This document shows positions 21,513 to 56,155 of a stretch of 64,000 bases of DNA, in pieces (positions within the stretch are counted from its first letter, which is position 1; each line of letters starts with the position of its first letter). The translations under genes and the position numbers were made by a program. This DNA comes from Candidatus Aenigmatarchaeota archaeon (lineage in GTDB: Archaea > Aenigmatarchaeota > Aenigmatarchaeia > Aenigmatarchaeales > JACQIB01), in the NCBI GenBank assembly GCA_016198755.1, contig JACQIB010000005.1:191271-255270 (forward strand). Reading direction: 5' to 3'. The notes under the pieces were generated by a model that was given only the letters and a program-made list of their open reading frames with translations, was not told the origin of the DNA and did not search any database.

Positions 21513-21785
21513 GGCAGGGTATGCCCCTGGTTGATGGGAAAGACCTGATAGGTAACCCAACTACCCCTCTCCACACAGCTTCCCCACAAACGCTTCCACA
21601 AAGGTTTATGCTTGCTTCCTTCCGGACCTGGGCAGGTTCGCCCCTGCAGCTGCTCTGCAGGACCATGCTTCTCAGAGGAAACAGCTGGACCTTGTCAGAC
21701 CTTATCACCGCCCAAAGACTCAGGCTCCGCCATAATGTCCGTTTGCGGTTACAGGTTAGGACAAGCTCCCCGGCCATCCCCTGCC
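21513..21785 (-). ncRNA. ffs: Signal recognition particle (7S) RNA
   Basis: Helix 8 CCCAGGTCCGGAAGGAAGCA; terminal helix GGCAGGG/CCCTGCC; TATA ~23 nt upstream. Confidence 0.93.
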
Positions 21786-54509: not shown

Positions 54510-55454
54510 TCACCTATTTTGTGTTTTTCTTGTAAAATTTTTATATTCCATCAAAATAAATTCTATCATTGGCCGGATGTTTCCACTTTCCTGATATTCT
54601 CGTATTGCCTTGTAATATCCACTCCTATTCTTGAATTGTATATTTACAGGTGGAAGATTATGTTTTAATAATATGTTATTCAACAGAAGCCGTCCGACCC
54701 TGCCGTTTCCATCACGAAACGGATGTATGGTTTCAAATTGATTATGAACTACTGCTGCAAGCAACAGTGGTGAATATTTCCTCCTGTTTTTACCATACCA
54801 TTTTATAAGTTCTTTTAGCATTTTTTCAACCAAAATAGAAGGGACTCCACTATGAATTATATTTCCCAATCCATCCACAACCACAACTTCTTCTCCTTTC
54901 TTTCTCAATTGTCCGGCATATGGTTTTGAATTTTGAAAAACTAATCTATGGAACTCCATAATTAAACTCAAAGAAATATGTTCTCTTGTTTTCTTCAAAA
55001 ATTCAACTGCCTCAGAAAGACCATACGTTTCTGATATTTCCCATTTTTCTCTTTCTTTTGGCCATTGCCTTTTTTCAAGAATCTGCTCAACTTCAGTCAT
55101 GGTGACTGTAGAGCCTTCAATAGCATTGGTATCATAAGTAAATTCTTGTTTGAATTTTTTCCATTCCAATTCACTTAAATGAGTTATTTTTATTCTGCCC
55201 TTTGCTTCTAGCGTTTTTATTTGATTTAATTCTTCAGTAGATAATATTGTACGTAATGGGTCACGGATAACTCTATATATTTTTATTCTCTCTTTGATTT
55301 TATTTTCTGCTTCCTTCAGTTTTTCTTTGATTTTATTTTTTGGCAAATTTTGCCCCAGATAAATTCGTATCTTTCTTATTTTATTTTTATCTCTAAAAGA
55401 ATGTGCTAAATAATATTTAGTGTTACTTTTGTGTGTTCTGACTTCTAAATGCAT
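54510..55454 (-). CDS. Fic-domain protein
   Basis: HPFRDGNGRVGR; TNAIEGS inhibitory-type helix. Confidence 0.95.
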   Translation of the reverse strand: MHLEVRTHKSNTKYYLAHSFRDKNKIRKIRIYLGQNLPKNKIKEKLKEAENKIKERIKIYRVIRDPLRTILSTEELNQIKTLEAKGRIKITHLSELEWKKFKQEFTYDTNAIEGSTVTMTEVEQILEKRQWPKEREKWEISETYGLSEAVEFLKKTREHISLSLIMEFHRLVFQNSKPYAGQLRKKGEEVVVVDGLGNIIHSGVPSILVEKMLKELIKWYGKNRRKYSPLLLAAVVHNQFETIHPFRDGNGRVGRLLLNNILLKHNLPPVNIQFKNRSGYYKAIREYQESGNIRPMIEFILMEYKNFTRKTQNR

Positions 55455-55515
55455 AGAAGCATTAGGTGACTACAATATATAAAGATTTGTATATAGGTGA
55501 CTACAAAAATAAAGG

Positions 55516-55754
55516 TGGCGCCGTCGGCAGGATTTTCAGCCCTTTTGGGGTTTGCAAAGACCTTTTCGTAAAAGGGATTTGCTTTGAACCTGCGCATCCT
55601 TGCGGATACCAGATCTCTTTATTAAGGTACTCCTCATTTCCGCCGCACCGCGCGCTAACGCGGGTTTGATCGGAGTCAAGCCTTTACAATCATCTGCTGG
55701 ATCCTAAGATCCGGTGCTCAAGTCTGGCGCATTACCGAGCTGTGCTACGACGGC
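55516..55754 (-). tRNA. tRNA-Ser(TGA) with two introns (55615-55716, 102 nt at 37/38; 55533-55582, 50 nt at 59/60)
   Basis: GCCGTCG/CGACGGC acceptor, G73, CCA, long variable arm; mature 87 nt. Confidence 0.88.
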
Positions 55755-55798
55755 ACTAGAAGTTTCACTGCAGCTTATTTAAGTTTACGCTAAACGAG

Positions 55799-56155
55799 CT
55801 ATTTTTTCCTATATCCAAAAAGCTTGTCATATCTCTTATGGTCAAATATCCTTAGTATAAAACAGAGTATCTCTATTTCCTACACCCTTAAAGTATAAAG
55901 CATTCTCCAATAGCCTGTCAAATCCACAACCCAAAGATTGTCTACAGGAAGCTCTTTGGGTATTAATTTTTTGGAAACGGGTGCCCCGTATTGCGGGTCG
56001 ATTTTTATTAGTTCCATCCTTTGCTTTATAGATTTTAACAGCTGCTGGTTTTCAGAATTTCCGATTCCCTTTGATCTTTCCTCAACTACTATCTTGTTTA
56101 GATGTTTCCATTCTTCAGCGGCTTCATCAATAAAAGTTATTCTTACAGGCTTCAC
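55799..56155 (-). pseudogene. RelE-like toxin with in-frame TAG at 55880-55882
   Basis: NLWVVDLTGYWRMLYTLRV*EIEILCFILRIFDHKRYDKLFGY continues in frame. Confidence 0.7.

Follow-up and report, generated by a model that had tools for sequence, protein, structure and literature searches.

A probable box C/D small RNA in the tRNA-Ser(UGA) intron of a DPANN archaeon and its predicted target, A1408 of 16S rRNA

Is the long intron of a transfer RNA (tRNA) gene only an interruption, or can it be a small RNA in its own right? The question is raised by a tRNA-Ser(UGA) gene in a stretch of 64,000 nucleotides (nt) of contig JACQIB010000005.1 (hereafter the window, meaning the whole stretch of DNA that was analysed), which comes from a 0.89-Mb archaeal genome with 40% G+C in 6 contigs. 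This genome is called G000 here, and other G-numbers denote relatives from the same order (42 genomes in total). An earlier, sequence-only reading of the window had found a 102-nt intron in this gene and suggested that it acts in trans as a guide RNA on helix 30/31 of 16S ribosomal RNA (rRNA). The intron is confirmed, and is inserted directly after tRNA position 37. Comparative evidence bears out the general idea of a guide acting on 16S rRNA, but not the helix 30/31 target. As judged from the sequences, the intron is instead likely to be a box C/D small RNA (sRNA) housed in a tRNA intron and serving as a guide to 16S A1408. The layout and spacing of its boxes, the covariation of C' with D', the complementarity of guide and target in relatives and the genes for three proteins are direct observations.

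A box C/D unit conserved across the order

A DNA search of 40 relatives returned tRNA-Ser genes with similar introns, and the words that these introns share were identified by reading them side by side. Exact copies of the 13-mer GGCTTGACTCNGA number 23 and are spread over 21 of the 42 genomes of the order. Twenty of these lie in the 37/38 intron of tRNA-Ser(UGA), one lies in an insertion in the 16S gene of G003, and two are chance matches in coding-like sequence. Variants with one mismatch (in G004, G010, G016, G017, G018, G021 and G024) fall in coding-like sequence and are not accompanied by boxes. The units compared below are the 20 tRNA-Ser(UGA) introns and the 16S-borne unit of G003.

All 21 units have the same order of elements: a C box (AUGAnnn), a spacer, a D' box (CNGA), a loop, a C' box (AUGnnGA), a second spacer and, shortly ahead of the 3' splice site, a D-like NNGA. 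The box-like words pointed out in the sequence-only reading, AGAUGA (55695-55690), CCGA and AUGA (55693-55690 and 55637-55634), are all present, and they correspond to the C, D' and C' boxes (Table 1). The D' spacer is 12 nt long in 19 units and 13 nt in the other two, one of which is G000, and its core GGCUUGACU is invariant in all 21; the conserved guide amounts to the 9-11 nt that immediately precede D'. The D spacer is less regular, with 12 nt in 14 units, 13 nt in three and 11 nt in two (again including G000); in the remaining two there is no NNGA at 11-13 nt, so that an NNGA follows C' at this distance in 19 of the 21 units.

The loop between D' and C' ranges from 3 to 41 nt. In G000 and five other units it is longer (23-41 nt) and contains a hairpin insert of differing sequence, which is absent from the 15 units with loops of 3-13 nt. 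The two hairpins with UUAG loops that had been noted in the G000 intron are both present; one of them is this insert, and at the position of the other, the 5' hairpin, relatives have a hairpin of other sequence. The D'-C' loop also holds a GCGGCGG word. This word or a close variant occurs in the tRNA-Ser intron units of the alignment, as well as in intron variants of G021 and G016 that lack D' and C', and is not found in the 16S-borne unit of G003. It is complementary to 16S CCGCC (1399-1403), which immediately precedes the guide target on the 5' side, and is similar to the tRNA 3' acceptor strand; inspection by eye revealed no covariation for pairing with either 16S CCGCC or the tRNA 5' acceptor strand.

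The D' and C' boxes covary. Position 2 of D' and position 5 of C' form a standard pair in every one of the 18 aligned units (U-A in 11, C-G in five, A-U in one and U·G in one), and G000 has the C-G version, CCGA with AUGAGGA. When nine pairs are tested across these 18 units, 14 cells are changed on both sides, against 7.7 +/- 1.7 in shuffles, none of 500 of which reaches 14. The covariation score is 0.178, compared with 0.108 in shuffles (1 of 500), and no slid register scores as high. For position 5 of C and position 2 of D, the same 18 units have U-A in five cases, A-U in four and other combinations, including U·U, in nine.

The proteins that such a unit would need are encoded in G000: fibrillarin and Nop5, in adjoining genes, and L7Ae. 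The fibrillarin is closest to those of metagenome-assembled genomes labelled Candidatus Aenigmatarchaeota (62, 54 and 50% identity). A Dim1/RsmA gene is also present, and the 'Dim1-loss' context of Nanoarchaeum therefore does not apply to G000.

In two relatives, G008 and G009, the tRNA-Ser(UGA) intron is only 34-35 nt long (L014 1498-1532 and L021 1467-1500) and has no guide spacers. These short introns retain words that resemble the C box (AUGAUGA or GAUGA) and the D box (AAGA or AUGA).

The D' guide and its 16S target

The 16S gene of each genome was scanned with that genome's own D' spacer, with a pair required at spacer position 5. All these scans converge on a single site at the top of helix 44, ..ACACACCGCC-U-GUCAAGCCAU-G... 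Both a unit and a 16S locus are available for comparison in 16 genomes, and the locus includes the helix-44 site in 12 of them. In 10 of these 12 (G001, G002, G011, G012, G015, G026, G029, G031, G035 and G041), positions 2-11 of the spacer are joined by an unbroken run of 10 Watson-Crick pairs to positions 1405-1414 of the genome's own 16S, within the target ..CCGCC-U-GUCAAGCCAU... Shuffled spacers reach 10 pairs anywhere in those loci, on either strand, in 51 of 3000 cases. The match in G003 is 8 base pairs (bp), on one copy. In G000, the D' spacer UAAAGGCUUGACU faces UGUCAAGCCAUUU in its own 16S (contig C2, ~200787, outside the window), with 8 contiguous Watson-Crick pairs at positions 2-9, a mismatch and 2 further bp.

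The fifth base of the spacer faces the first A of UCAAGC, numbered A1408 in PMC5389701. That paper also states the fifth-nucleotide rule, and from rule and numbering together the predicted methylation target is A1408 in the decoding centre, a guide-directed modification of known kind.

Exact searches do not lead to this site. The exact complement of the 9-nt core occurs in G000 only in two matches antisense to coding frames, apart from the intron itself, and in 10 relatives the exact 9-mer complement has no shared context besides the intron antisense. Such searches missed the helix-44 site because they require pairing at spacer position 1, where U stands opposite U. Other candidate targets were rejected. 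The 5S rRNA of G000 has no match; the anticodon loop of tRNA-Leu(CAA) offers only 5 contiguous pairs (by eye); and GGUUAAGUC, at position 1277 of the organism's own 16S, offers 9 pairs, of which three are G·U, with no extension. A scan for targets spanning rRNA insertions proved far too permissive and gave no usable candidate.

The 16S gene of G000 lies on contig C2, where the Rfam match stops at an insertion of ~0.8 kb; the 3' exon beyond it (~C2:200830-200503) reads GCACACACCGCCTGTCAAGCCATTTGAGTG. The insertion, near the 3' end of the gene (C2 ~200825-201613, or L001:725-1513, minus strand), contains a 262-amino-acid (aa) frame with an HTH_3 domain (E = 1.7e-5), the C-terminal part of which is nuclease-like by eye. 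Judging from flanking sequence, the 530-loop region of this 16S also looks interrupted, and the 23S gene spans 4255 nt against a model of 2987 positions.

The second guide

The D spacer appears, from its complementarity, to be a 16S guide as well in most relatives, to ~908-919 in some of them and to another site in family f3, and to have decayed in G000. In G001, G011, G012 and G020, this spacer (GUCCnUUAAGUn) forms 10-11 bp with AACUUAA(G/U)GGAA in the genome's own 16S, which we take to be positions ~908-919, with U912 opposite the fifth base. G012 has a compensating change: at one position its 16S carries U and its guide A, instead of the G and the C or U of the others. The D spacer core of these relatives is also able to pair with the host anticodon loop, ACUUGAG, and it may be that one stretch serves both as a 16S guide and in the pairing of the splicing motif. 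If so, the CUUAAGU core would pair with 16S ACUUAAG and with its look-alike in the anticodon loop, ACUUGAG, which could be why tRNA-Ser(UGA) became the host.

The D spacer of family f3, GUGAUAGGCnnn, fits either 16S 1399-1408, with the fifth base on C1402 and one G·U, or GGCCUAUCA further 5', with 8-9 Watson-Crick pairs. That of G000, GUACCUUAAUA, is a poor fit to the 16S sites, the one targeted by relatives included; its best Watson-Crick runs in the organism's own rRNA genes are 6 and 7, and its pairing with the anticodon loop of the host is limited to 5 pairs (UUGAG; by eye). It is probably a degenerate, decayed guide, and probably serves only the anticodon-loop pairing for splicing. It is not complementary to the anti-Shine-Dalgarno region (1531-1540), a match found only in the 16S-borne unit of G003.

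A related unit inside a 16S gene

The tRNA-Ser(UGA) intron of G003 has no C/D unit. The A1408 D' guide of this genome occurs instead in a canonical C/D unit in a ~150-nt insertion close to the 3' end of the 16S gene (L088, G003:C56, minus strand, ~1291-1340), flanked by GGTAGCCGTA and GGGAACGTGCGGCTGGATCACCTCC. The unit has a D'-C' loop of 3 nt, the C' box AUGAUGA, a 12-nt D spacer (GUCGGAGGUGGG) and the D box UUGA, and it is closed by a 6-bp terminal stem (by eye). Its D spacer forms 8 pairs, one of them G·U, with the anti-Shine-Dalgarno sequence CACCUCC (by eye).

Because the A1408 guide is found in two kinds of host intron, a module acting in trans is supported. Its occurrence in the tRNA-Ser(UGA) intron of 20 genomes and in a 16S helix-45 insertion of another may point to transfer between intron hosts. 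A broader proposal, that introns removed by the splicing endonuclease are vehicles for C/D guide modules, with the D guide doing double duty as 16S guide and exon-binding strand, is possible, if on balance doubtful.

Alternative explanations

Several points weigh against a guide to A1408 in G000. Its C box (AUGAUUG) and D-like box (AAGA) retain the GA dinucleotides, yet deviate from the standard consensus sequences, RUGAUGA and CUGA, and its spacers are 13 and 11 nt long, not 12. No Rfam C/D family matches positions 55300-56000 at E <= 10; Rfam seldom includes archaeal guides one by one, so the miss weighs little. The intron folds no better than shuffled sequences (z = -0.96). A loose C/D pattern is not enriched in the genome (34 matches, compared with 41 in the reversed genome) and is not usable as a detector. 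The 8-bp match between spacer and 16S is not significant alone, as 657 of 2000 shuffled spacers reach 8 in the organism's own rRNA genes, and a second 8-bp site (CAAGCCUU) exists in the same 16S; the assignment of the target in G000 therefore rests on the orthologues. These relatives share ancestry, so the 10 matching genomes are not 10 independent observations. Lastly, the conserved GCGGCGG word is not accounted for by a guide model.

The plainest alternative is an ordinary long intron with no function in trans, in which the box-like words are relics or chance. The frequency of the loose pattern, the unexceptional folding and the short duplex in G000 would all be in keeping with this. An ordinary intron is very improbable all the same: it sits badly with a 9-nt core that is invariant across several families while its flanks vary, with box positions that covary, with a 10-bp match at one homologous 16S site in ten genomes and with the recurrence of the unit in a different host gene in G003. 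Another explanation accepts the kink-turns but not the methylation. They may only recruit L7Ae for folding or splicing of the intron, or the ribonucleoprotein (RNP) may be an rRNA folding chaperone, and the conservation of the spacers would then reflect pairing, not catalysis. Such a role would suit the short introns of G008 and G009, with their C-like and D-like words and no guides, as well as the degenerate D-like box, and the two guides of the relatives do address two regions, ~908-919 and 1405-1414; a chaperone role of dual guides has been proposed (PMC4644070, PMC5389701, in the portions available). However, with its 12-nt spacing and its fifth base in register with A1408, the unit fits the methylation site measured in Nanoarchaeum equitans, and genes for fibrillarin and Nop5 are present, and we consider a role confined to L7Ae recruitment or chaperoning rather unlikely.

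A guide might also act in cis, as in the tRNA-Trp intron of Euryarchaeota, the C/D unit methylating the wobble U34 of its host instead of or besides rRNA. There is precedent in Cm34 and Um39 of tRNA-Trp (PMC7994747, PMC11408192, as far as their available text goes), and in relatives the D spacer (..CUUAAGU.) can pair over 7-8 bp, G·U included, with the ACUUGAG loop, so that U34 lies opposite the fifth base (by eye). The same spacers nevertheless pair better with 16S AACUUAA(G/U)GGAA, over 10-11 Watson-Crick bp, and the compensating change in G012 is with the 16S. In G000 only 5 anticodon-loop pairs are left, in a register in which the fifth base faces G35 instead of U34. The splicing motif would itself lead one to expect that the intron pairs with the anticodon loop, and the invariant D' guide has no match in the exons of the host tRNA (by eye); a cis guide seems quite improbable. 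The original proposal of helix 30/31 concerned the segment GGCUUGACUCCGAUCAAACCCGC (55682-55660), which is indeed present in the intron and resembles the complement of an archaeal 16S consensus at ~951-973, near the 966/967 loop, where it was thought to guide modification or folding. The idea of an rRNA guide is itself borne out, at another place in 16S. The 16S of G000, however, reads GCGGTTCAATTGGATTTAACACC at helix 30/31, and the pairing is broken up into interrupted short helices (-15.2 kcal/mol). For the whole intron against this region the energy is -24.9 kcal/mol, compared with -22.8 +/- 3.3 for dinucleotide shuffles, 122 of 500 of which are as good; against the first 1626 nt of the organism's own 16S (the Rfam-defined part, without the 3' exon that holds helix 44), 53 of 100 shuffles are as good. 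Orthologous introns conserve no more of the segment than 13 nt at its 5' end (GGCUUGACUCNGA). The remainder is the variable hairpin insert, which the 15 short-loop units among the 21 lack, and the CCGA halfway along the segment is the D' box, covarying with C'. Because complementarity to the cognate 16S is poor and half of the segment is not conserved, the helix 30/31 proposal is already refuted by the criterion put forward with it, and it is hardly tenable as an explanation of the intron.

A model for the intron-borne guide

If the intron is a guide to A1408, the following course of events can be envisaged. L7Ae, Nop5 and fibrillarin would bind the two putative kink-turn motifs, C/D and C'/D', during or after transcription. 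The splicing endonuclease and a ligase would free the intron, probably as a circle. The freed RNP would then use the spacer that precedes D' (..GGCUUGACU) to pair with a decoding-centre sequence at the top of helix 44, 16S 1405-1414, and would 2'-O-methylate A1408, the nucleotide opposite the fifth spacer base. In the broader and more doubtful scheme of introns as vehicles for guide modules, the output of a guide to the decoding centre would be tied one-to-one to the output of a tRNA, and two guides could possibly bring the helix-27 and helix-44 regions together during 30S assembly.

The tRNA-Ser(UGA) gene and its introns

The tRNA-Ser(UGA) gene occupies positions 55754-55516 of the window, on the minus strand, and comprises 239 nt with an encoded CCA, in three exons separated by two introns (Table 1). 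A TTAAATA word is located ~25-31 nt upstream (read directly). When the exons are joined, ARAGORN recognizes an 87-nt Ser(tga) cloverleaf with a long variable arm. By default the program finds no tRNAs in the window, and with its intron option it finds none in the tRNA-Ser region; the gene is called only after both introns are taken out.

Table 1. Exons and introns of the tRNA-Ser(UGA) gene and elements of the C/D-like unit in intron 1, in window coordinates
Feature	Position	Strand	Remarks
Exon 1	55717-55754	minus	tRNA positions 1-37, anticodon UGA
Intron 1	55615-55716	minus	102 nt, canonical 37/38 position; box C/D sRNA-like unit
5' hairpin GGAUC-UUAG-GAUCC	55699-55712	minus	between D and C boxes if the intron is circularised
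C box AUGAUUG	55687-55693	minus	AUGAnnn at this place in 21/21 units
D' spacer UAAAGGCUUGACU	55674-55686	minus	13 nt; core GGCUUGACU is the 5' part of the segment once assigned to helix 30/31
D' box CCGA	55670-55673	minus	CNGA in 21/21 units
UUAG-loop hairpin in D'-C' loop	55647-55665	minus	insert; ends approximate
GCGGCGG word in D'-C' loop	55640-55646	minus	conserved
C' box AUGAGGA	55631-55637	minus	AUGnnGA in 21/21 units
D spacer GUACCUUAAUA	55620-55630	minus	11 nt
D-like box AAGA	55616-55619	minus	followed by one G, then the 3' splice site
Exon 2	55583-55614	minus	position 38 to T-loop
Intron 2	55533-55582	minus	50 nt, T-loop; placement ambiguous by a few nt owing to A runs
Exon 3	55516-55532	minus	3' T-stem, acceptor strand, G73, CCA

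A GAG at both junctions of intron 1 allows the splice points to shift by up to 3 nt with no change in the mature tRNA. In the bulge-helix-bulge motif of archaeal introns, a helix of 4 bp is flanked by two bulges of 3 nt each, where splicing takes place. Examined by eye, the central helix in G000 has 3 pairs and a mismatch, and G012 fits the canonical motif.

Intron 2, in the T-loop, was absent from the sequence-only reading. It is one of five near-identical copies (89-97% identity), each of which follows GGTTCAAA in the T-loop of a different G000 tRNA gene; the other four are at C1:68573-68642, C2:223166-223234, C1:47769-47838 and C2:195796-195866. Further copies of the 50-nt intron occur in G006 and G002, and it looks like a spreading intron family. 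Additional introns are found in the tRNA-Ser genes of relatives, between anticodon stem and loop in G015, G020, G022, G031, G039, G041 and others, and in the D-arm in G002 and G006.

Across the whole G000 genome, ARAGORN with its intron option identifies only 16 tRNA genes, and the Rfam tRNA model has 16 matches over threshold. Many tRNA genes of this genome probably carry several introns or non-canonical ones. Two adjoining reading frames of 185 and 190 aa (C1:37787-38576, minus strand) each match the catalytic domain of the tRNA-intron endonuclease, which suggests a two-unit enzyme. In the available part of PMC5829648, a two-unit splicing endonuclease is reported to accept non-canonical introns. 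Elsewhere in the window, an archaeal signal recognition particle RNA is located at 21513-21785 on the minus strand (114 bits).

Comparison with known guide RNAs

An intron unit conserved across this order appears to address A1408 in the decoding centre, where ribose methylation has been measured in another DPANN archaeon. If this is confirmed, a long 'junk' intron of a DPANN tRNA gene can be a working sRNA gene, guide modules change hosts between introns of tRNA and of rRNA, and annotation pipelines miss both the tRNA and the sRNA. The papers compared below are represented by part of their text, and statements about them apply to that part.

The modification itself is documented in N. equitans. 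An RNase T1 fragment, UC(Am)(Am)G, corresponds to nucleotides 1406-1410, and Am1408 and Am1409 are stoichiometric by matrix-assisted laser desorption/ionization mass spectrometry (PMC5389701). Am1408 is assigned there to the sRNA sR13, which matches 1405-1415 with its 5' region and 1531-1540 (A1534, in the anti-Shine-Dalgarno sequence) with its 3' region, in both cases by complementarity. A D' guide complementary to 16S 1405-1415 is common to sR13, where it directs 2'-O-methylation of A1408, and the units described here, where A1408 is the predicted target, and the G003 unit also resembles sR13 in its second target, the anti-Shine-Dalgarno sequence. In the other units the second guide differs, addressing ~908-919 in some relatives and another site in family f3, and being decayed in G000. 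The available text does not describe sR13 as intron-borne, whereas the unit here lies in the 37/38 intron of tRNA-Ser(UGA); the two are compared by description only.

Guides for E. coli position A1408 have been predicted in Sulfolobus acidocaldarius as well as N. equitans (PMC4644070). Those of S. acidocaldarius and of Ignicoccus hospitalis (sR56) address the same rRNA nucleotide, but their second guides differ, and the text at hand does not describe them as intron-borne (PMC4644070, PMC5389701).

Two known RNAs are closer in their housing. The C/D unit of the pre-tRNA-Trp intron of Euryarchaeota, as in Haloferax volcanii and Pyrococcus (sR50), is likewise a complete guide in a tRNA intron at the canonical position, which splicing sets free and which can act in trans (PMC7994747, PMC11408192). 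The host here is tRNA-Ser(UGA), not tRNA-Trp, the conserved guide addresses 16S and not the host's C34 or U39, and the lineage is that of a DPANN archaeon near Aenigmatarchaeota (by fibrillarin similarity). The elongator tRNA-Met of N. equitans has a 66-nt intron that gives a stable C/D-like RNA, which is likewise a DPANN case of such an RNA in a tRNA intron and a candidate for an intron-borne guide (PMC3491384). Its host tRNA is a different one and no target is given in the text available, whereas comparative data support a target here.

In these excerpts, the tRNA-Trp intron is the only intron-borne C/D guide named in the reviews PMC7994747 and PMC11408192, and no tRNA-Ser intron guide or rRNA-directed guide in a tRNA intron was found in the full-text literature, taken without subscription journals and supplements. 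On the sequence evidence, then, the A1408 guide would be of a known, sR13-like kind, and its housing in a tRNA-Ser(UGA) intron would be new.

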